From assembly GCA_017468465.1 (NCBI GenBank), contig JAFUIN010000018.1:9766-73765 (forward strand): a stretch of DNA of 64,000 nucleotides, read 5' to 3'. This document shows positions 1 to 29,689 of the stretch, one piece after another. Each line of letters begins with the position of its first letter. The first letter of the stretch is position 1. The translations under genes and the position numbers were made by a program. The notes under the pieces were generated by a model. It did not search any database. It was not told the origin of the DNA and saw nothing but the letters and a program-made list of their open reading frames with translations. The stretch comes from Clostridia bacterium. Lineage in GTDB: Bacteria; Bacillota; Clostridia; UMGS1840.

Positions 1-20
1 AGGCTTCGTATTCTTCGATT

Positions 21-749
21 CTATCCTTTGTGAGTTCGGTTACCATAGTTTAAGATATATCCTTTCGCAAGATTTTCAATTTCATTGGGAAGGGGAGGAA
101 AGTCGGGAAATGTTTTATATTTTCGTTCTGCCGCTTTGGCAATCAGAAGGTCAGAAAGCTCGGGATTGCTTGGCAGAAGAGGACCGGTGAGATAGGTGCC
201 GTAAATATTTTTATACATCACGCCTTCTGTTTTATCTTCACCATTATTGCCGTTGCCGCTTAACACATTGCCTAACGCGGTAACGCCCTTTCCTAAAAAG
301 GTTTGTCCGTTGTGGTTTTCAAAGCCTACCAGCACACCGAAGGAGGTGTTTAAGGAAATGCTTCCTGTCAGCTTCTTTGCTCCCTCCCGGGTGGTCATGT
401 CCACCAGAGAAAGACCGGTATGTTCTTTGCCGCGAATGGAATAGGCGTGTCCCAAAAGAGGATATCCGCTTGCTGTGGCAAGAAGGACGCCGCCGTCATC
501 CCGGTAAGACAGGAGAGTTTCTTTGTGTTGGGACAGCTTTTGTGCTACCCGTGGAAGGTCATGGTCGCTTCCACCGCCTAAGTAAATGATATCAGCAGCT
601 TGAAAGGGAATGGGTTCTTCTATAGAACAGGTAAGAACCTCTGCTTCAATCCCGCGGAGTGCACAGCGCTTTTTCAGCACAGTGATGTTGCCGCGGTCAC
701 CGTATAAATTCAAAAGCTCGGGGAACAACTGTAAGATGGTCAGTTTCAT
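21..749 (-). CDS. gatD: GatD-like subunit of lipid II isoglutaminyl synthase (CobB/CobQ-type GATase_3 fold). Catalytic Cys and His positions are substituted.
   Basis: 242 aa, collinear with S. aureus GatD as I recall it (LGGGSD, VGFENH, GTYLxGP blocks). Its ATGA start overlaps the murT stop. The family motif xICGGYQ reads TASGYP and GTYLHG reads GTYLTG. Confidence 0.8.
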   Translation of the reverse strand: MKLTILQLFPELLNLYGDRGNITVLKKRCALRGIEAEVLTCSIEEPIPFQAADIIYLGGGSDHDLPRVAQKLSQHKETLLSYRDDGGVLLATASGYPLLGHAYSIRGKEHTGLSLVDMTTREGAKKLTGSISLNTSFGVLVGFENHNGQTFLGKGVTALGNVLSGNGNNGEDKTEGVMYKNIYGTYLTGPLLPSNPELSDLLIAKAAERKYKTFPDFPPLPNEIENLAKGYILNYGNRTHKG

Positions 750-2110
750 TTTTGTTCCCCCTTTTTTTGTTGTTTTTGATATAGTTTTACCTCTTTTTCC
801 AACGCATCTTTTGCATCAAAAATCAAGGTGTAGTTTACCAGTACATAGACCACTTCGCAATCGGTTTTCAAAAAATCCATTGCCAAGGGCACAGGGTCCG
901 GATTCATTGCCGGACTGTCACACACTTCTGTATAATAAAGGCGAAGCGCCATATCGTATAAGCGTTTTCCCGACACACCGTATGCAGTGCAGTTGGTCAG
1001 TTCTTCAAAATTTACATCATACAGCCAGGAAATATCGCATCCGTCGGAAGGCATATCGTTGATGCCGATGACCACTGCTTTTTTGCGGGGATCGTTTAAG
1101 AGGGTTGCAATGGCCTGATTAAAGCCTGCCGGATTTTTTGCCAGGTTGAGAACAACCGGCTTGGAAAGGGGAAACACTTCCATTCGTGCAGTTTGCGGAC
1201 GGTAGCTTTGAAAGGCTTCGGTGTAGTTTGCAATGCGCAGCTCCAAAAGCTCTGCCACTGCCATCGCAGCAAGCATATTGTAAATGTTATAAAAGCCAAA
1301 AATTTCTGCAGAAACTGTTTCGGTTTGGTTGAAGGTAAACTGTATTGCAGGCTCACACACTACATCGGTTGCTGAAAAATCCGGAGTGGGACGTTTGAAA
1401 TCGCAGTTGGGACAAGCATAATTGCCCAGCTGATTATAGTGATAATATTCGTAGGAAAGAGGAGCGTTACAAAAGAGACAATTTCTGCCTTCTTTTTCTT
1501 CGGTCAGCGGTTGGTCTACCCTCTGTGATACACCAAAGGTGACACACCGGTTGGAGACAGCTTTGGTGAAATAACTGCTCATGGGGTCGTCTGCATTCAG
1601 GCAAAGAAGCGCCTCCGGTGCTTTCTCAATGGCAATTTCCAGCTGTTTTAAGGTTTGGTCGATTTCTCCGTAGCGGTCCATCTGGTCACGGAATAAATTG
1701 GTTACCACGATGATATCGGGAGAAAGATGGTCAAATACGATTTTCGCAGTGGCTTCGTCAATTTCCAATACGGCATAGTCGGCCTTCAGCGCGCCAAAGA
1801 GCGAGGCTTTTGAAAGGTAGGCAGTTGCTACGCCGTCAAACATATTGGCGCCCACACAGTTGCAAACGGTGGAATACCCGCTTTTCAAAAGCAGTGTGTT
1901 AATCATATTGTTGGTGGTAGTTTTTCCGTTGGTGCCAAGCACACAAATGGTTTCGTATTTTACTTTTTGGGAGAGCATTCTGACAGCTTGCGGGCAGATT
2001 TTCAGCGCAAGTCTGCCGGGAGCAGAGGAGCTTCGTTTTCCCATCAGCTTGCCGACAAAAATCAGAAATTTACAAACCAGAATGCTTGCAATCAGCTGTA
2101 ATTGTTTCAT
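746..2110 (-). CDS. murT: MurT, Mur-ligase-type subunit of lipid II isoglutaminyl synthase
   Basis: 454 aa with a GTNGKTTT P-loop, a four-Cys ribbon (CLFC...CPNC) and the C-terminal DGCDISWLYD block. Translationally coupled to gatD. Confidence 0.85.
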   Translation of the reverse strand: MKQLQLIASILVCKFLIFVGKLMGKRSSSAPGRLALKICPQAVRMLSQKVKYETICVLGTNGKTTTNNMINTLLLKSGYSTVCNCVGANMFDGVATAYLSKASLFGALKADYAVLEIDEATAKIVFDHLSPDIIVVTNLFRDQMDRYGEIDQTLKQLEIAIEKAPEALLCLNADDPMSSYFTKAVSNRCVTFGVSQRVDQPLTEEKEGRNCLFCNAPLSYEYYHYNQLGNYACPNCDFKRPTPDFSATDVVCEPAIQFTFNQTETVSAEIFGFYNIYNMLAAMAVAELLELRIANYTEAFQSYRPQTARMEVFPLSKPVVLNLAKNPAGFNQAIATLLNDPRKKAVVIGINDMPSDGCDISWLYDVNFEELTNCTAYGVSGKRLYDMALRLYYTEVCDSPAMNPDPVPLAMDFLKTDCEVVYVLVNYTLIFDAKDALEKEVKLYQKQQKKGEQK

Positions 2111-2132: not shown

Positions 2133-3800
2133 TTACACTTCCATAATAATAGGAAGAATCATGGGCGAACGCTTGATTTTTTTGTAAAGAAAATCTGAAA
2201 CTGCGTTACGCATTTCATTTTTTAAGGTGGACCAGTCAGTAACATTTCGTTGAAGCAGACTTTCTAATGCTTCCGTGGCCACCAGACGGGTTTCTTCCAT
2301 CAGTTCTTCGCTTTCCCGCATATATACAAATCCACGGGAAATAATATCGGGGCCGGACAGCACTTGATTGTTCTGGGAAGACAGCGACACGACAATGACA
2401 ATCAGCCCATCCTGAGACAGGTGCTTTCTGTCACGCAGCACAATGTTGCCCACATCTCCCACCGAAAGACCTGCCACAAACACCTTTCCTGCGGGAACGC
2501 TGCCTGCGGGTTTTGCCTGGCTTTTGGAAACAGTGAGTACATTGCCCAGCTGCAGAATGAAAATTCTGTCTTCTGGAATGCCCACCTCCATCGCCAGATT
2601 TTTGTGGTGGATGAGATGCTTATATTCGCCATGAATGGGCATGAAAAACTTCGGTTTGGTAAGCGCTAAAATAATTTTCAGCTCTTCCCGACAGGCGTGG
2701 CCGGAAACGTGCACGTCTGCAAGATTGTCATACACCACCGAGCAACCCCGCTTAAACAGCTCGTTTACCACGGTGGAAACCAGCTTTTCGTTTCCGGGGA
2801 TGGGGTTGGCGCTTAACACCACCAAATCGTTGGAATTAAGCTCTACCTTGCGGTGTGCCGAAAATGCCATGCGGTGCAGTCCGCTCATGGGTTCGCCCTG
2901 GCTTCCGGTGGTGATAATGGTCAGATGTTCGTTGTTATAATTTTTGATGTTATCAATGTCAATGAGGGTGCCTTTTGGAATTTTCATATAGCCAAGCTCC
3001 TGAGCAACCTGCACGATGTTTTCCATGCTTCTGCCCGAAACGGCAACCTTTCGGTTGTAGCGGACAGAGGCGTCAATAATTTGCTGCACACGGTGCACGT
3101 TGGATGCAAAGGTAGCAATGATAATTCTTTTTTTGGGGTTGGAAATAAAAATGTCGTTTAAGGCTTTCCCAACCGAACGCTCGCTTTGCGTATAGCCGGG
3201 ACGCTCTGCATTGGTAGATTCGGACAACAGCAGTGTAACGCCTTTTTTTCCCAGCTCTCCAAATCTTGCCAGGTCTATCATATTGCCCGAAACGGGAGTG
3301 GTGTCAATTTTGAAGTCACCGGTGTGCAAAATGATGCCCTCAGGGGTATGAATTGCAATGGCAACCGAATCTGCAATGGAGTGGTTGGTGTGGATAAATT
3401 CCACCATGACGTCGCCGAATTTTAAGGTATCGCCTGCGTTGACCTGATTTAAGGCAACCTTTGAGAGCAGATTATGCTCTTTGAGCTTAAATTTTACAAG
3501 ACCAATGGTCAGCTTTGTACCAAACACAGGGATGGCGCATTCCTTCATCAGATAAGGGATGCCGCCGATGTGGTCCTCGTGACCGTGAGTCAGCACCAAA
3601 GCCTTGAATTTGTCTTTGTTTTTCACGATGTAAGAATAGTCGGGAATGACCAGGTCAACCCCCAACATATTTTCATCGGGGAAGGCAATTCCGCAATCAA
3701 TTAAAATTCCGATATCTCCGTACTCAATAGCGGTCAGGTTTTTGCCGATTTCGTGAAGACCGCCCAGGGGAATTACCTTCAGTATTTTCTTTTTTGCCAC
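2133..3800 (-). CDS. rnj: Ribonuclease J
   Basis: Metallo-beta-lactamase/beta-CASP protein with HGHEDHIGG. Start moved to the GTG at 3800, which follows AGGAGG (VAKKKILKVIPLGG); the longer ORF-track start has no RBS. Confidence 0.9.
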   Translation of the reverse strand: MAKKKILKVIPLGGLHEIGKNLTAIEYGDIGILIDCGIAFPDENMLGVDLVIPDYSYIVKNKDKFKALVLTHGHEDHIGGIPYLMKECAIPVFGTKLTIGLVKFKLKEHNLLSKVALNQVNAGDTLKFGDVMVEFIHTNHSIADSVAIAIHTPEGIILHTGDFKIDTTPVSGNMIDLARFGELGKKGVTLLLSESTNAERPGYTQSERSVGKALNDIFISNPKKRIIIATFASNVHRVQQIIDASVRYNRKVAVSGRSMENIVQVAQELGYMKIPKGTLIDIDNIKNYNNEHLTIITTGSQGEPMSGLHRMAFSAHRKVELNSNDLVVLSANPIPGNEKLVSTVVNELFKRGCSVVYDNLADVHVSGHACREELKIILALTKPKFFMPIHGEYKHLIHHKNLAMEVGIPEDRIFILQLGNVLTVSKSQAKPAGSVPAGKVFVAGLSVGDVGNIVLRDRKHLSQDGLIVIVVSLSSQNNQVLSGPDIISRGFVYMRESEELMEETRLVATEALESLLQRNVTDWSTLKNEMRNAVSDFLYKKIKRSPMILPIIMEV

Positions 3801-3976
3801 AATGATCCTCCTATAGTAAATTAGTAATCCGATACTAAAAATTTTTCCGAACAAACTATCTAATTAAGTATAGCACAAATTTTAGCTTCTGTCAATTATA
3901 TAACAGTATTATTTCTCTTCCTTTTTGAAAATAATCAAAATATTGGAAAAACCTTTTCCAAATCCGGAAAAAATAC

Positions 3977-4134: not shown

Positions 4135-4983
4135 ATGTTTTTGGTAACCAAAAGAAAAGAGCTCAATCCCACCGTCACTCTGATGGAGGTGGAAGCTCCT
4201 CGTATTGCCAAAAAAGCAAAAGCAGGTCAGTTTATCATCTTAAGAGTGGATGAGGATGGAGAGCGGATTCCTCTGACGGTTGCGGATACCAACCCCGAAG
4301 CAGGGACTGTCACCATTATTTTTCAGATTGTGGGCGCTACTACCGAAAAACTCAACCATATTCCCCAAGGCGGATATCTTCATGATTTTGTTGGGCCTCT
4401 TGGTGTTCCTTCAGCGATAGAAGGGCTGAAAAAGGTAGCAGTTGTTGGTGGCGGTGTTGGCTGTGCCATTGCGTATCCCATTGCCAAAGCATTGCATAAT
4501 CAGGGTACCCAGGTGCATTCCATTGTAGGCTTCCGTAATCGGGATTTAGTGATTTTAGAAGACGAGTTTAAGGAAGCAAGCGACATTTTGAAGCTGATGA
4601 CAGATGACGGCTCCTACGGAGAAAAAGGGCTGGTCACAGATGCGTTGAAAGCATTGATTGAAAGCGGAGAAGAATATGACGAGGTAATCGCTATCGGTCC
4701 CCTGGTAATGATGAAGTTTGTGTCAAAGCTGACAAAAGAATATGGCATCAAAACCACTGTCAGCATGAATCCTATTATGATAGACGGCACGGGCATGTGT
4801 GGGGGATGCCGTTTGACAGTTGGCGGAGAAACCAAATTTGCCTGTGTAGACGGACCGGATTTTGACGGTCATTTGGTAGATTTTGATGAAGCAATTCAGC
4901 GTTCCCGTATGTATTTCGGAACAGAACGCCATCAGCATGAAGCAACCTGTAATTTGTTTAAGGGGGTAAAAGAAGATGCCTAA
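4135..4983 (+). CDS. nfnA: NfnA-type ferredoxin-NADP+ oxidoreductase small subunit (PyrK-like FAD/[2Fe-2S])
   Basis: 282 aa, PyrK-like fold with C-terminal CGGCRLTVGG...FACVDGPDF. Overlaps and precedes a GltD-like subunit. Confidence 0.8.
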   Translation: MFLVTKRKELNPTVTLMEVEAPRIAKKAKAGQFIILRVDEDGERIPLTVADTNPEAGTVTIIFQIVGATTEKLNHIPQGGYLHDFVGPLGVPSAIEGLKKVAVVGGGVGCAIAYPIAKALHNQGTQVHSIVGFRNRDLVILEDEFKEASDILKLMTDDGSYGEKGLVTDALKALIESGEEYDEVIAIGPLVMMKFVSKLTKEYGIKTTVSMNPIMIDGTGMCGGCRLTVGGETKFACVDGPDFDGHLVDFDEAIQRSRMYFGTERHQHEATCNLFKGVKEDA

Positions 4984-6361
4984 TATGTCACCCAAAAAGA
5001 ATCCCATGCCTCATCAGGACCCCAATGTGCGCAACAAAAACTTTCAGGAGGTTGCATTGGGTTATACTTTGGAGCAGGCAAAAGACGAAGCGGAAAGATG
5101 CTTGCAGTGTAAGCATAAACCGTGCGTAGGCGGATGCCCTGTTGCCATTGATATTCCTGCCTTTATTCAGAAAATTAAGGAAGAAGATTTAGAAGGAGCG
5201 TATGAAATTATCAATCGTTCCAGCTCTTTGCCTGCTGTTTGCGGCAGAGTGTGTCCCCAGGAAACTCAGTGTGAAGCACGTTGTGTCAGAGGAATCAAAG
5301 GGGAACCGGTTGCTATTGGACGTCTGGAACGTTTTGTTGCAGACTGGCATCGTCTGAATGTAGAAAAAGAGCCCAAGCTTGCAGCGAAAAACGGACATAA
5401 GGTAGCGGTAATCGGTGCCGGTCCGGCAGGGTTAACCTGTGCGGGGGATTTGGCGAAAGCCGGATGCGAGGTTACCATTTTTGAGGCACTTCACGTTGCC
5501 GGAGGGGTTTTGGTATACGGAATTCCGGAATTTCGTTTGCCAAAAGCCATTGTTCATGACGAAATTGAAAAGCTCAAACAAATTGGTGTAACCATTGAAA
5601 CCAACACTGTAGTCGGAAAAGCAGTATCGGTTGATGAGCTGTTTGAAGAAGGTTTTGAAGCCGTGTTTATCGGTTCCGGAGCGGGGCTTCCCAGATTTAT
5701 GAATATCAAGGGTGAAAACTTAAATGGCGTATTTTCCGCCAACGAGTTTTTAACCCGTATCAATCTGATGAAAGCTTACCGTGAGGATTCTTCCACTCCT
5801 GTTCACCACGGGAAAAACGTGGCAGTTGTGGGAGGCGGTAATGTTGCTATGGATGCCGCACGCTGCGCAAAACGGCTGGGTGCAGAAAATGTTTATATTG
5901 TATACCGTCGTTCGCTGGATGAAATGCCTGCCAGAAAAGAAGAAGTGGAGCACGCAATGGAAGAAGGCATTATCTTCAAAGTGCTTTGTAACCCAGTGGA
6001 AATTCTGGGAGATGAAAACAACTTCGTTTCCGGCTTACAATGTGTGGAAATGGAACTTGGAGAGCCGGATGAATCGGGCAGAAGAAAACCGGTTGTAAAA
6101 GAAAACAGCCAGTTTTTGCTGGATGTAGATTGTGTGATTATGTCGATCGGAACTTCTCCCAATCCGCTCATTAAAAGCACCACCAAGGGGTTGGAAACCA
6201 ACAAGCACGGCTGTATTGTTACCGAAGAAAACGGCTTAACCTCTCGCGAGGGTGTCTATGCCGGTGGTGATGCGGTAACGGGGGCTGCAACCGTAATTCT
6301 GGCAATGGGTGCCGGAAAAACCGCAGCACATTCCATTTTGGAATATTTGGAAAATAAATAA
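4976..6361 (+). CDS. nfnB: NfnB / glutamate synthase small-chain-like NADPH oxidoreductase subunit
   Basis: 461 aa with N-terminal Cys clusters (CLQCKHKPCVGGCP), a GAGPAGL dinucleotide fold and a second GGGNVAMD fold. Confidence 0.85.
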   Translation: MPNMSPKKNPMPHQDPNVRNKNFQEVALGYTLEQAKDEAERCLQCKHKPCVGGCPVAIDIPAFIQKIKEEDLEGAYEIINRSSSLPAVCGRVCPQETQCEARCVRGIKGEPVAIGRLERFVADWHRLNVEKEPKLAAKNGHKVAVIGAGPAGLTCAGDLAKAGCEVTIFEALHVAGGVLVYGIPEFRLPKAIVHDEIEKLKQIGVTIETNTVVGKAVSVDELFEEGFEAVFIGSGAGLPRFMNIKGENLNGVFSANEFLTRINLMKAYREDSSTPVHHGKNVAVVGGGNVAMDAARCAKRLGAENVYIVYRRSLDEMPARKEEVEHAMEEGIIFKVLCNPVEILGDENNFVSGLQCVEMELGEPDESGRRKPVVKENSQFLLDVDCVIMSIGTSPNPLIKSTTKGLETNKHGCIVTEENGLTSREGVYAGGDAVTGAATVILAMGAGKTAAHSILEYLENK

Positions 6362-6365
6362 AAAA

Positions 6366-6401
6366 ATGGTTACCTGCAAGAAACAGGTAACCATTTTTTT
6401 T
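6366..6401. terminator. Bidirectional intrinsic terminator (nfnB / patatin gene)
   Basis: Perfect 11-bp stem ATGGTTACCTG/CAGGTAACCAT with an A-run before and a T-run after. Confidence 0.7.
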
Positions 6402-7665
6402 AGGATGGGATTAAATCAAAGGTGGCAAGGTAAAAAGCAGCAACCGATTCTTTTGGAAACAGACCGGCAACCCGAAAAATTGCCTCCGGCGTTTTGGAAA
6501 ACAGCAGTGCTAAAAATATGGTTACAGCTTTTTGGTCCAGTTGTTTTAGAAAATTGCCCTTCAGGGAAAGCTTTTTCTTTTGAAAATTTTCATACACTTC
6601 GTTTATGTTTTTTTCTTCCATAACCGATAGAACCCGATGTTTTAATGTCTCGTGGAAGGAATCAAAGGTGTAGAGGGTAAGAGGAGATAATTCCAAAATG
6701 CTTCCTGCTGTTTCTGCGGCGGTTTCCAGCATGACAGGAAAGGTTAAGGGGCGTGTGGTGCTGCCCTGCAGAAATTTTTCCATGGCGGTATAGGCTGATA
6801 AATCTAAAAGATTGCCTTTCAACCGACGATTTTGGAAAAATTCCTTTTGTTTTTTTAATGTGACGTGCTTGCTTTTTGCCAAACGGGAAAACTCATGCTT
6901 GGCAAAGGTAAAAAGAGTTCCGTCAAAGAAGGAAAAGGCTTTTAAGGTGTCTAAATAGCCCAAACGGATATTTCGTTTTGCGGTGTCCTTTTCAAAAATC
7001 AGAAAATTACCCAAATCGTACCGGGGGCAGATGTAGACTGTGTTTTTATCGTTTGACAGCTCTTTAATGTTTGTTTGCACCAGACCTACCGATTCCAAAT
7101 TGACCACAATCAATCGGTCTGCGCCTCTCTTTTTGGCAAGGGAAACGGGCATATTATCATAATATCCGCCGTCGATGTATTCAGTGCCTCCGATACTGTG
7201 GCTTTTGACTGCCGGATAGCAGGAGGCGCTTGCTAAAAGATAGTCGTTGAGTTTTCCGTGAGGGATTTCGTCTGTGTATAGCTGACAAGGTTCGAGCCCT
7301 TTCTTTTTTACGGTTACCAATCCAAATTCGACAGGGGAAAGGCGAATTGTGTTTTCGTCAAGACAGGTTTCCAAAAGGTTTTTCAATCCGTCGGCAGTAG
7401 CTCCGCCACGTCGGAAGAATTCTTTGGCATATTCAGACAAGGTAGCTTTTTCTTTCAAGTCAAAGACCATTTTGGTGTCGATGGTTTCCCAGACCTTCAA
7501 AGCAGTATCAAAAGAATTTTGCGCAATGAGCGCACCGTTTAAGGCACCGACGGAGGTTCCTGTCACAATATGGATGGGAATATCCATTTCACGCAGTGCC
7601 TGCCAGACACCGATTTGGTATGCACCACGGGAGCCGCCCCCTGCTAAAACCAATGCGGTTTTCAC
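6400..7665 (-). CDS. Patatin-like phospholipase
   Basis: GGGSRGAYQIG oxyanion motif, GTSVGA (GxSxG) and DGGYYDN Asp motif. Start placed at the GTG at 7665 after AAAGAGGTG. Confidence 0.85.
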   Translation of the reverse strand: MKTALVLAGGGSRGAYQIGVWQALREMDIPIHIVTGTSVGALNGALIAQNSFDTALKVWETIDTKMVFDLKEKATLSEYAKEFFRRGGATADGLKNLLETCLDENTIRLSPVEFGLVTVKKKGLEPCQLYTDEIPHGKLNDYLLASASCYPAVKSHSIGGTEYIDGGYYDNMPVSLAKKRGADRLIVVNLESVGLVQTNIKELSNDKNTVYICPRYDLGNFLIFEKDTAKRNIRLGYLDTLKAFSFFDGTLFTFAKHEFSRLAKSKHVTLKKQKEFFQNRRLKGNLLDLSAYTAMEKFLQGSTTRPLTFPVMLETAAETAGSILELSPLTLYTFDSFHETLKHRVLSVMEEKNINEVYENFQKKKLSLKGNFLKQLDQKAVTIFLALLFSKTPEAIFRVAGLFPKESVAAFYLATFDLIPS

Positions 7666-7856
7666 GAAAATCACCTCTTTTTCTGCACGATGATGCGATA
7701 TGTAATATAGAAGAAACGCTTGCTTTTTTATTAGTATATCGCATTTATTGCAAAATATCAACTAAAAAATGGATAAAGTTGTGACGAATTATTTGACAGG
7801 GTGGGGCTTTTATGATATGATACAAGTAAGAAAATTTTGGAAAGGAAACAAATGCT

Positions 7857-24926: not shown

Positions 24927-25118
24927 TTCATTGGGATACATTGCTTCCTTAAGACGCTGTTCCATTCTCTTTACCACAAAGCTTTCCCGTGCTTTTGGAG
25001 GAGCTTTTTTGGTAGGCGTTTTCTCCTTTGCTGCAAGTTGCATAGAAATCCGGTGAAGCAGAAAAAGCTTCATCAGCTCTGTCCCTAACATCACTAACAA
25101 AATCAGAAGTTCTATCAT
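24924..25118 (-). CDS. Small single-TM protein (holin-like size), unknown function
   Basis: 64 aa with a hydrophobic N-terminus (MIELLILLVMLG) and a Lys-rich tail. Its start overlaps the upstream stop (ATGA). Confidence 0.4.
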   Translation of the reverse strand: MIELLILLVMLGTELMKLFLLHRISMQLAAKEKTPTKKAPPKARESFVVKRMEQRLKEAMYPNE

Positions 25119-26905
25119 TTTCTACGCTCCTTTTTCATTTCTAAATACACATTCAGCACCGAAAATTTTTCGGTTTGCCCGACATCAGTCTGCCCCTCAA
25201 TTTCCAAACGGAAAAAATTGCCGGATACATTTGGTGTACACCTGGTTTCTGTAAAATCACTATGAAAATATCGGTGGTTCCACTGCGATTTTCCATAGAT
25301 CAGATGGCTTGTGTTCTCCAGCTTTTCTGCTTTACATTCCTGCTCGGAAGAAAGCTTTACCTCGCAGTCCAGATGATTGAAGCATCCCTTCACTTTCACA
25401 ACCATTTGTGTGCAACGGGCAATTTCGTTTTCATTGACAGAGGGAAGCACCCCAAAACAAACACGATATGAAATCGGCTCATCGGTGTCGGTTTCCGGCT
25501 GATAATCAAAGTGACATTCAGCATCAAATCCTACCACATAGTTCCCACGTCCCAGAAGAAGCCGTCCGCTGTAATCTTCTGCGATGCAGCGGCAGGCAAT
25601 TCCCTCATAGCAGGTAAAGGCACCGGAGGAAACGTGATATATCAATATCTTATCATCCAATACCAGATAATATTTTCCCTGTCTGTAATACGCAAACGCA
25701 TTGTTTGGGGACTGCGGAAGTGTCACCTTTCCCTTTGATAAAAACTTATAAAGCGAGCTGGAGGGAGAATATAGCATTTGAACCGTCAGCATGGAGGAAG
25801 AAAACGACATCAGCTCTCCGTTGGAATAAAAGCTGACACTGCCCGGTGTCAGACAAATTGTGCTTCCGAATTTTGTTCCGTTTGGAACACTTAGTAAGGA
25901 CCATTGCCCATCTTCTGTAGGGTCGGAACCGACATAATGGCTCCAGCCGTATTCATAACAAACCACCACCGATTTTTCCACCACCAAAAGCCCGGTAATT
26001 TTTCCAAGATTCAAGTGGGGGTAAAGCACATTCACTTCTGAAAAGCTGCACCAGTTATTCGGTTCGCTGATATAAAGTGCGGTCGGATTTTTTTTGTTTC
26101 CTGCTGCAAAATAACGCATGGAGGGCGGGTGCCACACAAAATGCTTGCAGGAAAATGCCGTCTGTGTCACCCCCGGTAAATCCAACACATCCGGAAATAT
26201 ATCGGAAAGAGAGGTCATCTCGCTGATAGAAAAAAAGGTGTGCTCATAGTAACCTTTTTTCATATCTACCGTAATTTTGCTCCCTGCCGTATATTTCATA
26301 AAAACTGCACCGCCTATTTTCCCCAATCGGATAAACGGCGCTTGTTTTATCAGCTCATGAATGTTTTCCTTCGATGCGTTGGTGCGGTTGTCGCAGTAAT
26401 ACAACACGCCCGTATCACTGTCTATAATATGATGCCCAAACAAATCAGCCGGAAAGTCTCCGTCTGTGGTGTAGTCATCCTCCAGCTGCTCCAGAAACAG
26501 GCACAAATTCTGAGGCTCCTCCAATGTAATTTCTCCGTCGCATCTGCGATATAAGGGAAGCATGGTTTTTCCGATTCCCCCAAACAAAAAGCCGTAACCG
26601 CCGGTGGTGTGAATTACCTGAATGCCGGAGGCGTGCATTGTCAGATTACAGTTTGTTCCTGCTACCACAATTTCTGCTGTCGGTGCGGTATCCACCAGCA
26701 AAATTTCGTGTCCTTTCGGGCTTAACAGCTTGTGAATGCCTTTTACCTCATTGGAAAAAGGCCCGTAAATCTTTTTGGTTCCGTCACGAACCGTCAGTCC
26801 GCCGTTTTCAATTTCAAAATTACTGATATCCTCCACTTCGTCGCTTTTCATCAGATAAGGGGACTTGCAGTTTACCATTCCACCTGAAAAATCGTAATAA
26901 TCCAT
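25115..26905 (-). CDS. Phage structural protein, possibly a T7 gp12-type tail tubular B / nozzle protein
   Basis: 596 aa, beta-rich. The N-terminal pattern DFSGGM...(N)...GGLTVRDG resembles my recollection of nozzle-protein N-termini (LKGGIS...GLQKRP). Position follows an adaptor-like gene. RBS GGAGGT. Confidence 0.4.
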   Translation of the reverse strand: MDYYDFSGGMVNCKSPYLMKSDEVEDISNFEIENGGLTVRDGTKKIYGPFSNEVKGIHKLLSPKGHEILLVDTAPTAEIVVAGTNCNLTMHASGIQVIHTTGGYGFLFGGIGKTMLPLYRRCDGEITLEEPQNLCLFLEQLEDDYTTDGDFPADLFGHHIIDSDTGVLYYCDNRTNASKENIHELIKQAPFIRLGKIGGAVFMKYTAGSKITVDMKKGYYEHTFFSISEMTSLSDIFPDVLDLPGVTQTAFSCKHFVWHPPSMRYFAAGNKKNPTALYISEPNNWCSFSEVNVLYPHLNLGKITGLLVVEKSVVVCYEYGWSHYVGSDPTEDGQWSLLSVPNGTKFGSTICLTPGSVSFYSNGELMSFSSSMLTVQMLYSPSSSLYKFLSKGKVTLPQSPNNAFAYYRQGKYYLVLDDKILIYHVSSGAFTCYEGIACRCIAEDYSGRLLLGRGNYVVGFDAECHFDYQPETDTDEPISYRVCFGVLPSVNENEIARCTQMVVKVKGCFNHLDCEVKLSSEQECKAEKLENTSHLIYGKSQWNHRYFHSDFTETRCTPNVSGNFFRLEIEGQTDVGQTEKFSVLNVYLEMKKERRK

Positions 26906-26911
26906 AGTGTG

Positions 26912-27442
26912 CTACCTCCACTTCGGTGCTTGAATCGACGCCGGCTTTCTTCTTGCTTTTTTTGTCATACTGCTATGGATTGCCGCACAGTTGTCATAGA
27001 ATTCTTCTACCAGCTTGTCTGCCAGCCGATTGGACGGGTCATCGCTTCGCAACACAGAAAACGCTACATATTTGCATAGCTCTCCTTCATATTCGGGTGC
27101 AACCGGAATATTTTCGTTTTCCGACAAGCGCCCCGAAAACCCTTGATAATAATACACAAGATACTCTCCCTGGTGGGAAACAAACAATCCGATTTCGTCC
27201 AAATGGTATTCCAAATATCGGCTTTTCTCCCGATATATTTTATAAATTCCTTTATTTTGCGGAATAGAGACAGGTGTTTCGGGGTCGCTTACAATCACTC
27301 GCACACACTTTACTGGGCAAGCAGTGGGATACTGTGCAGTTAACAGCAAAAGCCCTTCTGTCAGATAAATATTTGCCAGTGACGTATCAATTTGTTTCCC
27401 AATTAAAACTGATGCCACATCTGCGATTTCTTTTAAGGTCAT
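26912..27442 (-). CDS. Phage structural protein, possibly a gp11-type head-tail adaptor
   Basis: 176 aa. Size, position and loose N-terminal and C-terminal pattern similarity to T7 gp11 as I recall it. RBS AAGGAGG. Confidence 0.35.
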   Translation of the reverse strand: MTLKEIADVASVLIGKQIDTSLANIYLTEGLLLLTAQYPTACPVKCVRVIVSDPETPVSIPQNKGIYKIYREKSRYLEYHLDEIGLFVSHQGEYLVYYYQGFSGRLSENENIPVAPEYEGELCKYVAFSVLRSDDPSNRLADKLVEEFYDNCAAIHSSMTKKARRKPASIQAPKWR

Positions 27443-27954: not shown

Positions 27955-29103
27955 TTACGCGGTAATTCCCTTTAATCTTGCCTGTCCGCCCGGATGGTCG
28001 CACAGCAGCTCGCCGTATTTTGCCAAAACGGCTGTCCATGCAGGTTTGCCGGCAATCTGTTTTAAGATTTTTCCGTCATCATCCAGCCAGTCCCAATCGG
28101 ACAGGGTGTGCATTGCGAAGGATTTGGAGTTTAACAAATCCATGGTACCATCAGGACAATGACGGTCAGCAACCAACGGAATTCCGCTGAAGGAAATTGC
28201 CTGGAATCCGCCTTCTAAAGTCATGGGGTCAATATTTCTTCTGGTTAATTCCAGGTAAGAAAGATAGTTTCTTCTCACGTCATAAGAGCAAGAAATATAG
28301 TCTACAGTGCTTCCGGCATTTTCTTCTAAGTAATCAATCGCAGTCTGAATTTTCAAGTCAGAAATTGCACCGGTGTTTTCGGAAATATACGGCATCATCC
28401 AGTAGTTTTCGCTACGGTCTACACCGTATAAAGGTTGAGTAGTATCGGAAGTTAAAATAGCTCCTAACCCGGTAATTTCTTTCTGGTAAGAATTCTGAAC
28501 TGTGATTTTATCGCCCACAGAAGCTGTCACATTGCTGTCTAACACAACAATCTTTTCAGGACGGTTAATGGCAACAATTCTTTTTGCTTTTTCGGTGGAG
28601 GAGGGGCCAATGATGTCAATAATCATCCCCTCCATCAGATATTTCACCGAATCCACCTGTACACTGTTGTCGTTACTGTCTTCCACGGTTGCAATGACTC
28701 CGGTACCGTCGGTGAACAGTGCTCTGGAATAGTTGAATTTGGCTGCTTCTAAAATGCCTTTCATTTCCTGTGTGAGTAAATCCACAAAGGAGTTGGTGTT
28801 GAGACGAGACGCTTTCATCGCCTTATCGGAAATTTCAATTACTCCGTACATATCTTTGGTGGTAGTCTCAAAGTGAGTATATTTGTTGGAACCTGCCTGC
28901 GGAAGATTGCCGGAATCGGAAGAAAAACCGAAACCGCCGTTTAACGCGTAGGGGGCAAGTCTTACCACCTTATGCCCGATAATGTTTTTGGAGGTTGTAA
29001 CAATTTTGTTGTAAAAAGGGTTGGTATTTGTGTTTAACTGGTTTCTTAAAACGTCCAGATAAAAGCTTTTCAGCGCCGCATCTGCTGTGTTGGTAGTAAT
29101 CAT
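27955..29103 (-). CDS. HK97-fold phage major capsid protein
   Basis: 382 aa. The central block KYTHFETTTKDMYGVIEISDKAMKASR...LTQEMKGILEAAKFNYSRALFTDGTG parallels the HK97 gp5 pattern (...VQASRQVMDD...LLNGDGTG). Follows a scaffold-like gene. Confidence 0.75.
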   Translation of the reverse strand: MITTNTADAALKSFYLDVLRNQLNTNTNPFYNKIVTTSKNIIGHKVVRLAPYALNGGFGFSSDSGNLPQAGSNKYTHFETTTKDMYGVIEISDKAMKASRLNTNSFVDLLTQEMKGILEAAKFNYSRALFTDGTGVIATVEDSNDNSVQVDSVKYLMEGMIIDIIGPSSTEKAKRIVAINRPEKIVVLDSNVTASVGDKITVQNSYQKEITGLGAILTSDTTQPLYGVDRSENYWMMPYISENTGAISDLKIQTAIDYLEENAGSTVDYISCSYDVRRNYLSYLELTRRNIDPMTLEGGFQAISFSGIPLVADRHCPDGTMDLLNSKSFAMHTLSDWDWLDDDGKILKQIAGKPAWTAVLAKYGELLCDHPGGQARLKGITA

Positions 29104-29158: not shown

Positions 29159-29689
29159 TTATTTTTTCACCATCTGAAGAAATAAATCGCCCGCTTCTTC
29201 AAAGGTTTTGGGTTTCGTACCCGGAGTGGTGTAAAACTCACCGCCTTGTCCGGAAATCAGTGCCGGGGGCGTTTGAGACAAGCGCTCCATATACTCACGG
29301 TAGGGCGCAGGAGGAGTTGTGAGCGCTCGTTTTGCAAGGGTAAAGGCAGAAGACAAATCCAAAGACAAAAGCTCCGGATTTTCTGTCAGATAAGAGATAA
29401 ATTCGTAAGCCCGATGGGTTAAGGCGTTCTCTTCCAAGAAGGCGTCAAGGTCATTTTGAAACTGTGTCATCTCATCCGGGATAGTTGCCTCCTCCAGAAG
29501 TTCTCTTGCCTCTTTCAGTTCTTCTCTGGTCTGAGAAATATATCGTTCACTTTCCCGATAAGCCTTTTCCAGCTCACCATAGTCTTTGAACTTGCCGAGA
29601 ATTAAAGGGGTGTCCCCATTCTCTCCCTGATCGGTCTCACTTGCCGGCGGAATTGCTTCCAACGCAGCGTCGGTCAGATTGTCAATCAT
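29159..29689 (-). CDS. Phage scaffolding-like protein
   Basis: 176 aa, acidic and helical. The ILGKFKDYGELEKAYRESE motif is common in phage scaffold/head-assembly proteins. Lies directly upstream of the capsid gene. Confidence 0.6.
   Translation of the reverse strand: MIDNLTDAALEAIPPASETDQGENGDTPLILGKFKDYGELEKAYRESERYISQTREELKEARELLEEATIPDEMTQFQNDLDAFLEENALTHRAYEFISYLTENPELLSLDLSSAFTLAKRALTTPPAPYREYMERLSQTPPALISGQGGEFYTTPGTKPKTFEEAGDLFLQMVKK

Follow-up and report, generated by a model that had tools for sequence, protein, structure and literature searches.

What remains for a glutaminase subunit to do once it has lost the residues with which it hydrolyzes glutamine? This question is raised by a stretch of 64,000 nucleotides from a Clostridia bacterium (GenBank assembly GCA_017468465.1, contig JAFUIN010000018.1, positions 9,766 to 73,765), here referred to as the window, which carries at its left end a murT-gatD pair whose GatD protein has neither the catalytic cysteine nor the catalytic histidine of its family. 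MurT/GatD is pursued as an antibiotic target, and the system in the window is recognizable as such; what is new is its natural form without these two residues. Structural papers call the catalytic Cys and His conserved among GatD enzymes (PMC6113224, PMC5871853), and full-text literature searches turned up neither a natural GatD described as lacking the Cys or the His nor a MurT described as ammonia dependent. We consider it probable, while well short of certain, that the pair constitutes a lipid II isoglutaminyl synthase that runs on ammonia and requires GatD as a noncatalytic subunit.

The gatD gene and the segments of its product that matter here are as follows.

21..749, minus strand: gatD, GatD family (GATase_3), 242 amino acids, without the catalytic Cys and His (Pfam and PDB matches, AlphaFold2 model)
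450..485, minus strand: former nucleophile elbow LLATASGYPLLG, residues 89 to 100 (alignment to S. aureus GatD)
171..200, minus strand: GTYLTGPLLP, residues 184 to 193, with Thr188 at the His189 site and the MurT-contacting G-P-x-L-P kept (alignment)
555..578, minus strand: oxyanion strand and next residues, GGGSDHDL, residues 58 to 65 (alignment)
687..713, minus strand: lid/interface loop LNLYGDRGN, residues 13 to 21, with the Tyr gate (Y16), with Asp18, and with Gly20 as the contact of the MurT Trp (alignment)

The 242-amino-acid protein is matched by Pfam GATase_3 (PF07685) at 2.1e-24, and in a phmmer search against the PDB its residues 2 to 241 match S. aureus GatD (5n9m/6gs2) with an E value of 7e-48, the two proteins sharing approximately 41% identity. 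An AlphaFold2 model built on the alignment of the clade described below has a mean predicted local distance difference test (pLDDT) score of 88.6 and a TM-score of 0.85 to 6gs2_A; among solved structures it most resembles GatD from the complexes of S. aureus, S. pyogenes, and S. pneumoniae (TM-scores of 0.84 to 0.86). Two NCBIfam equivalog models score below their cutoffs (NF052463, 181 bits with a cutoff of 450; NF045636, 151 bits with a cutoff of 400), but both are narrow models of the Staphylococcus/Streptococcus type and are weakly informative.

The phmmer and MAFFT alignments have zero gaps around either catalytic site, with the flanking motifs GY.LLG and GTYL.GP in register, and this rules out an alignment shift concealing a Cys or a His. 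The former nucleophile elbow LLATASGYPLLG pairs with GLTICGGYQFLG of S. aureus GatD, which places Ala93 (codon GCA, nucleotides 471 to 473) at the position of Cys94, Ser94 at that of the oxyanion Gly95, and Pro97 at that of Gln98. His189 is replaced by Thr188 (codon ACC, nucleotides 186 to 188; GTYLTGP versus GTYLHGP), Arg128 by Lys, Glu65 by Asp, and Gln66 by Leu. A first-pass annotation, made from the letters of the window alone, had already claimed that both catalytic residues are replaced and that the protein runs at an offset of -1 relative to S. aureus GatD from the GGGSD block onward; both claims hold against Pfam GATase_3 and the S. aureus GatD structures, with no missed insertion or deletion. 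Its further proposal that glutamine hydrolysis may have been lost is backed by published mutants. GatD variants C94A, H189A, and R128A are inactive in glutamine deamidation (PMC5871853), C94S and MurT-D349N abolish or severely reduce glutamine-dependent amidation (PMC6113224), and the C94G variant discussed below behaves likewise; the additional pocket changes at G95, Q98, E65, Q66, and R64 point in the same direction. Judging from its sequence, we interpret the gatD product as a pseudo-glutaminase subunit which, without nucleophile, general base, oxyanion glycine, and several glutamine-binding residues, would supply no glutamine-derived ammonia.

How far does this condition extend beyond the window? 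A homolog search of 5.8 billion proteins returned 5,327 GatD homologs. In this survey of the spread of the variant in related Clostridia, which the first-pass annotation had suggested, the 34 closest clusters (down to approximately 56% identity) all turned out to share the loss of the Cys, with A, G, T, or S at that site. The His site holds S, T, or A in 33 of these 34 clusters, the exception being P0012, and Pro occupies the Gln98 position in every one. The canonical CGGYQ...LHGP pattern starts at P0032 and P0035 (58% identity) and then continues throughout the remaining matches listed. The nearest Cys-bearing homologs, here called live as opposed to dead, also have the His in 85/85 cases, and Cys, His, and Arg128 are present at all 71 GTDB loci retrieved from outside the clade (Actinomycetota, Chloroflexota, Oscillospiraceae, and others). 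In a neighbor-joining tree, the Cys-less sequences are monophyletic; at the level of 90% identity, they make up at least 34 clusters, with 9 GTDB species among them. The basal member of this clade, P0012, has a Ser at the Cys site and still has the His, which suggests that loss of the Cys preceded that of the His. Among GTDB species representatives, the clade consists of nine metagenome-assembled genomes (MAGs) named "Clostridia bacterium" (loci L001 to L009), several of which are titled as water deer or water buffalo gut, while the sample codes of the rest read as other ruminants. The ruminant gut is rich in ammonia. The window protein's own 90% cluster holds MBQ7950988.1, annotated as "glutamine amidotransferase [Clostridia bacterium]," and for dead GatDs such an annotation is in all likelihood functionally wrong.

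The partner gene, by comparison, appears to be in good order, as the first-pass annotation had stated when it described MurT as looking intact and the two genes as translationally coupled.

746..2110, minus strand: murT, Mur ligase-like synthetase subunit, 454 amino acids, apparently intact (Pfam, structure alignment)
1919..1936, minus strand: MurT P-loop GTNGKT, residues 59 to 64 (motif)
1403..1480, minus strand: MurT Cys4 zinc ribbon insertion, CLFC (residues 211 to 214) to CPNC (residues 233 to 236) (motif)
1025..1057, minus strand: MurT DMPSDGCDISW, residues 352 to 362, with D359 (equivalent to D349; nucleotides 1034 to 1036) and W362, the interface Trp

The P-loop, the Cys4 ribbon, and the DGxDxSW loop are all kept, and murT and gatD overlap by the four nucleotides ATGA, an arrangement found at 9/9 clade loci. 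The protein matches Pfam Mur_ligase_M (PF08245) at 1.4e-18, MurT_C (PF08353) at 1e-27, and S. aureus MurT at 1.5e-64; the NCBIfam MurT equivalog is matched too, well under its narrow cutoff. LEIDE (residues 115 to 119) holds the Mg-binding Glu (E108 in S. aureus), the FRDQMDRYGE loop is kept, and within DGCDISW (residues 356 to 362) D359 pairs with S. aureus D349 and W362 with W352. Each known catalytic or interface motif is kept in all 11 clade MurTs, in which D359 and W362 are invariant. As far as motif comparison can tell, the catalytic motifs of the clade MurTs are thus unremodeled. Relative to the closest live sisters, 16 of 454 positions are clade specific, mostly at variable sites, and remodeling of MurT as a sign of a new reaction was discarded on these grounds, with the DMPSD segment, to which we return below, as the exception.

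A different picture emerges for GatD itself when one considers where the clade departs from residues shared by at least 85% of its live relatives. These positions include C94, G95, Q98, R64, E65, Q66, R128, R152, and H189 (S. aureus numbering). Live relatives read GGGSD-R-E-Q (R64 in 93%, E65 in 98%, and Q66 in 96%), while the dead clade has E/D, K/N, D (97%), and L (94%) in this stretch. The Gly95 position is T, S, N, or G across the clade, the R128 position is mostly Lys, and R152 is relaxed. Since the clade pocket positions 93, 94, 188, 63, and 149 vary, the pattern fits the loss of a binding site better than the gain of one. The Tyr gate (S. aureus Tyr17; Y16 in the window, nucleotides 702 to 704) is present in 85/85 live relatives; it is Tyr in 26, Ser in 8, and Asn in 1 of the dead-clade sequences and Ser in the separate Cys-less protein P0142, and the window GatD keeps it. 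In known structures this residue, S. pneumoniae Tyr30 or S. aureus Tyr17, plugs the ammonia path (PMC6085368). At the interface, Asp18 and Gly20 are invariant in dead and live sequences alike, as are, within the clade, G189, P190, L192, and P193 of the GPxLP loop and the motifs GFENH and GNNGED. Gly21 and the loop following His189 (GPxLP) contact MurT in the known complexes, with Trp352 as the partner (PMC6085368, PMC6113224). Sequence comparison thus indicates that the MurT-contact residues are invariant, whereas the glutamine pocket is remodeled or relaxed.

Two explanations that would keep the old pocket in use can be judged by these residues. The first is that glutaminase activity survives through a substitute nucleophile, that is, Ser94, another Cys of GatD, or MurT Cys358 (in DGCD). 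Ser94 does adjoin the site of the lost Cys, in the window MurT the D349 equivalent is directly preceded by a Cys, and the basal P0012 combines a Ser at the Cys site with the His. Yet position 94 is T, S, N, or G in the clade, position 188 is His in P0012 only, 7 of 11 clade members have Ile at MurT position 358, there is no newly conserved Cys column, and Cys29 is also found in 61% of live relatives, while S. aureus C94S is inactive (PMC6113224). All three candidates, Ser94, MurT Cys358, and GatD Cys29, were rejected as being unconserved in the clade or present also in live relatives, and we regard this explanation as highly unlikely. The second is that GatD has become a sensor or regulator: its dead pocket would still take up glutamine or a related metabolite, and MurT activity would be adjusted to the nitrogen status, with the amidation nitrogen then coming from ammonia or with amidation switched off. 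Pseudoenzymes often retain ligand binding, and both the Lys or Arg at the R128 position (33 of 34 clade sequences) and the invariance of Asp18 would suit such a role; since, however, the residues that should hold glutamine are mostly replaced (E65, Q66, Q98, and G95) and the Tyr gate is gone in about a quarter of the clade, we consider a sensor quite unlikely.

Is the dead subunit maintained, or is it on its way out? The ratio of nonsynonymous to synonymous substitution rates (dN/dS) was taken from the three closest genome pairs only, those with a synonymous divergence (dS) of 0.5 to 0.7; distant pairs are saturated (dS > 1) and were excluded. In these three least-saturated pairs, dN/dS is 0.07 to 0.10 for gatD and 0.05 to 0.06 for murT, and a decaying gene can be ruled out on the strength of the gatD value. 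At equal MurT identity, dead-dead GatD pairs lie 10 to 17 points below live-live pairs: 57% versus 69% GatD identity at a MurT identity of 60 to 65%, 60% versus 71% at 65 to 70%, and 58% versus 75% at 70 to 75%. Live GatD is more conserved than its own MurT, and dead GatD is less conserved than its own MurT. The gatD gene of the clade is therefore under strong purifying selection, yet its constraint is relaxed relative to that of live GatD. These data also bear on the suspicion that we are dealing with an assembly or sequencing artifact, or with a decaying pseudogene in a lineage whose wall amidation has ceased. It is true that all sequences are metagenome derived, but at least 34 independent clusters, drawn from many samples, carry these substitutions, the frame is unbroken, the dN/dS ratios of both genes are low, and the model is confidently folded, so that this explanation is barely credible.

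Losses of this kind are not confined to one clade. When the 150 nearest representatives from a library of 1.84 billion 50%-identity clusters were scored, 129 had both Cys and His, 1 was truncated, and 20 lacked the Cys and/or the His, the studied clade counting as 1 of these 20. Because most of the other Cys- or His-less representatives have a live nearest neighbor, many independent losses are indicated. Of five such representatives whose gene context was inspected, four are encoded directly downstream of a MurT with GTNGKT and D..SW: P0142, from a Ruminococcaceae/Oscillospiraceae MAG; P0239, from an Anaerovoracaceae MAG; the P0217 cluster; and P0223. The MurT-GatD fusion P0255 has Gly at both the Cys and the His sites and keeps D..SW. 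The MurT Asp349 equivalent is kept in all six dead-GatD lineages. As a separate observation, single-chain MurT-GatD fusions of approximately 670 to 940 amino acids occur among the 50%-cluster representatives (P0126, P0128, P0132, P0149, P0183, P0184, P0193, P0229, P0234, P0253, P0255, and P0258). The fifth representative with inspected context, P0134 (locus L092, 4001-4729), has Gly at the Cys site, keeps the His, and is encoded away from MurT; its gene closes a purine biosynthesis operon (purN/IMP cyclohydrolase/purH/purD) and overlaps the purD 3' end. Conceivably, this member of the GatD family works with another partner.

How, then, might the complex work? In our favored reading, MurT would activate the alpha-carboxylate of the D-Glu residue of the stem peptide with ATP and then amidate it, as its intact motifs imply, and free NH3/NH4+, of which the ruminant gut contains plenty, would supply the amidation nitrogen. 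An ammonia-rich habitat of this kind would remove the advantage of having a glutaminase. By analogy with S. aureus, GatD would bind the MurT C-terminal domain and complete the cavity through which the MurT active site is reached, or keep it open. GatD is retained and its interface is conserved, and there is an experimental precedent: the S. aureus MurT/GatD-C94G complex loses its glutamine-dependent activity and keeps NH3/NH4Cl-dependent amidation at pH 8.5, and S. aureus MurT alone is inactive with any donor (PMC3266927). In the known complexes, MurT Asp349 is the third residue of the catalytic triad and part of an acidic gate facing the GatD active site (PMC6085368). That its equivalent is kept in six dead lineages despite the lost His partner suggests a role beyond the catalytic triad; with no His to polarize, it is conceivable, if speculative, that this Asp is part of an acidic gate receiving ammonium. 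The first-pass annotation had put forward free ammonia with GatD as a scaffold as one possibility, and this appears to be the best-supported one in light of the purifying selection, the invariant MurT contacts, the unremodeled MurT, and the C94G precedent.

The operon around the pair bears on what the modified product might be. Its flanking features in the window are as follows.

1..46, minus strand: 5' end of a FemAB-family gene, MVTELTKDRIEEYEA..., whose first 15 codons lie at 46-2 before it leaves the left edge of the window (translation)
24..71, minus strand: GatD C-terminal tail LAKGYILNYGNRTHKG, whose last 8 codons plus stop are dual coding with the start of femAB
2133..3854, minus strand: RNase J gene, 22 nucleotides upstream of murT, a conserved neighbor throughout the lineage

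The RNase J gene is probably in the same transcription unit as murT, and the gene order at all clade loci is RNase J, murT, gatD, FemAB-family gene, DUF2344, and GT4/pyruvyl-transferase. The FemAB-family gene starts 26 nucleotides inside gatD. Its 15 codons in the window are near-identical to orthologues, of which the full-length one at L001 matches PF02388 at 1.7e-67 and has S. aureus FemX (6snr, 9e-52) as its closest solved structure. This gene would make the operon a lipid II tailoring module that combines amidation of D-Glu with the addition of a branch amino acid. The GatD tail, LAKGYxLNYGNRTHKR, is invariant in the clade, disordered in the model, and present in the live P0032 and P0035; its invariance is accounted for by the overlap with the femAB start, and as a new motif of the dead clade it was ruled out for these reasons. 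P0032 and P0035 (loci L081 and L087), the live relatives nearest to the clade, have the same 26-nucleotide overlap, while more distant live relatives (L010, P0044, and P0042; loci L083 and L089) lack femAB and have gatD followed by DUF2344. A gain of femAB as the cause or correlate of the death of GatD was ruled out, as live relatives already carry the gene, and for the same reason its insertion is placed before the loss of the Cys. The likely order of events, reconstructed from these sequences, is femAB insertion, then loss of the Cys, then loss of the His.

Divergent from the RNase J-murT-gatD genes, the window carries an NfnAB-like pair (a DHODB-type Fe-S subunit and a GltD-like pyridine nucleotide oxidoreductase; 4135-6361, plus strand), which is present upstream at each clade locus (L001 to L009 and L085) where the contig reaches far enough.

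Several points weigh against an ammonia-dependent synthase. One is biochemical: the S. aureus enzyme takes ammonia at pH 8.5 only, not at pH 7.5 (PMC3266927), and efficient use of ammonia at cytoplasmic pH would thus need adaptations. Another concerns a second, canonical gatD, for which a GTDB scan found no second locus in the nine MAGs, but with patterns that match 0/85 typical live Clostridia GatDs. It is conceivable in this regard that such a GatD, or another class I glutaminase, supplies ammonia in trans and that the GatD described here is a regulatory or assembly paralogue, since only 64 kb of the source genome is covered. Still, no second GATase_3 protein or Mur ligase was found in the 64-kb window, the 80 loci kept from the scan include none from the nine clade MAGs beyond the known ones (weak evidence), and the dead gatD is the murT-coupled copy in every clade member. 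A live copy would also have to compete with it for MurT, because the live glutaminase site forms at the MurT surface (D349 and W352) that the dead GatD can still occupy. Provision of ammonia in trans therefore strikes us as improbable.

The remaining points concern newly fixed residues. Asp64, Leu65, Pro97, and Arg83 have become fixed in the clade GatDs, and the MurT segment preceding the D349 equivalent (1043-1057 in the window, residues 352 to 356) is DMPSD in 11/11 clade MurTs, compared with DNAAD in S. aureus and N-A-Q or Y-E-S in live sisters. DMPSD recurs in the MurT at L090, the partner of P0142, which represents a separate Cys-less GatD lineage, and it is found in 0 of approximately 74 MurTs paired with a live GatD. 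The L090 MurT is 45% identical to the clade and to the live sisters alike, while clade and sisters share 56%, and the recurrence may reflect parallel adaptation or shared history. The P0142 GatD also shows the clade-like EKD and A-S-x-Y-P changes. Together, the fixed GatD positions and DMPSD could mean that a function was gained rather than simply lost. The ligase might then have been repurposed to join another amine (an amino acid, an amino acid amide, or a diamine) to the D-Glu alpha-carboxylate, or to act on another substrate, with the former pocket or the MurT loop binding the amine. Non-amide substituents on the D-Glu alpha-carboxyl do occur in some bacteria, and a branch-adding FemAB-family enzyme is encoded in the operon. 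Against this stand the variable pocket positions, which are unexpected for a specific ligand site, the unchanged catalytic and substrate motifs of MurT with its few clade-specific positions, the lack of DMPSD in the four other dead lineages, and the presence of femAB in P0032 and P0035, which makes that gene older than the loss of the Cys. We therefore consider repurposing, which the first-pass annotation had named as its alternative, unlikely. Its more specific form, in which the GatD pocket and the DMPSD loop make up a new donor site and, with the FemAB-family enzyme, give rise to an undescribed peptidoglycan chemotype in uncultured ruminant-gut Clostridia, is given a somewhat lower probability still, and an ammonia-dependent synthase remains the reading that we favor.

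Two further features of the window are unrelated to the pair. A 382-amino-acid open reading frame (27955-29103, minus strand) between the housekeeping genes aroB and serC matches the NCBIfam model "phage major capsid protein" (NF033394) at 3.5e-64; it has neighbors at 25115-26905, 26912-27442, and 29159-29689, of which the 596-amino-acid one has no NCBIfam match, and the region could represent either a capsid-like island or a small remnant of a phage. A patatin-like phospholipase (6400-7761, minus strand), located between the NfnAB-like pair and rsmA, shows a weak likeness (E values of 3e-6 to 1e-5) to lipase models of cyclic oligonucleotide-based antiphage signaling systems (CBASS) and other antiphage lipases.

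The clade and at least five other lineages provide evolutionary evidence for an essential, noncatalytic role of GatD in the complex, and they indicate that peptidoglycan amidation can probably draw on free ammonia in vivo in ammonia-rich habitats. They also constitute a natural test of the proposed ammonia path and of the role of MurT Asp349, which is kept without its His partner.

In comparison with the MurT/GatD systems of S. aureus, S. pneumoniae, S. pyogenes, and M. tuberculosis, the pair in the window has the same two coupled genes, GatD fold, MurT domains and motifs, and Gly21/xGPxLP interface. It differs from the canonical form in that GatD is without Cys94, His189, and Gly95 and has Pro for Gln98, Asp-Leu for Glu65-Gln66, and Lys for Arg128, and from the S. 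aureus system in having DMPSD in place of DNAAD in MurT and a femAB-family gene joined to the operon by the 26-nucleotide overlap. The S. aureus C94G complex, like those with C94S and C94A, resembles it in that the nucleophile is gone and the complex still forms (PMC3266927, PMC6113224, PMC5871853); those mutants are single laboratory substitutions, whereas here a natural lineage of at least nine species has lost the whole catalytic apparatus under purifying selection. The gene overlapping gatD belongs to the same family (PF02388) as the FemX/FemAB lipid II aminoacyl transferases (S. aureus FemX, 6snr; Weissella FemX), but its joining to murT-gatD with overlapping frames is apparently limited to the clade and the live P0032 and P0035. 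Archaeal MurT-like ligases likewise represent a MurT branch operating without a glutaminase (PMC11915815); there, the GatD gene is absent, while here it is kept as a conserved dead subunit. There is a likeness, too, to carbamoyl phosphate synthetase I (CPS1) of ureotelic vertebrates, an ammonia-using synthetase which retains an ancestral class I glutaminase domain with Ser294 in place of the Cys and other changes in the glutamine site (PMC4655335), although CPS1 is an ATP-grasp enzyme and not a Mur ligase, is eukaryotic, and has its dead domain fused rather than as a separate subunit. A dead GatD conserved beside an intact MurT is analogous to this arrangement, and the S. aureus C94G complex suggests that such a pair may use ammonia in vivo.

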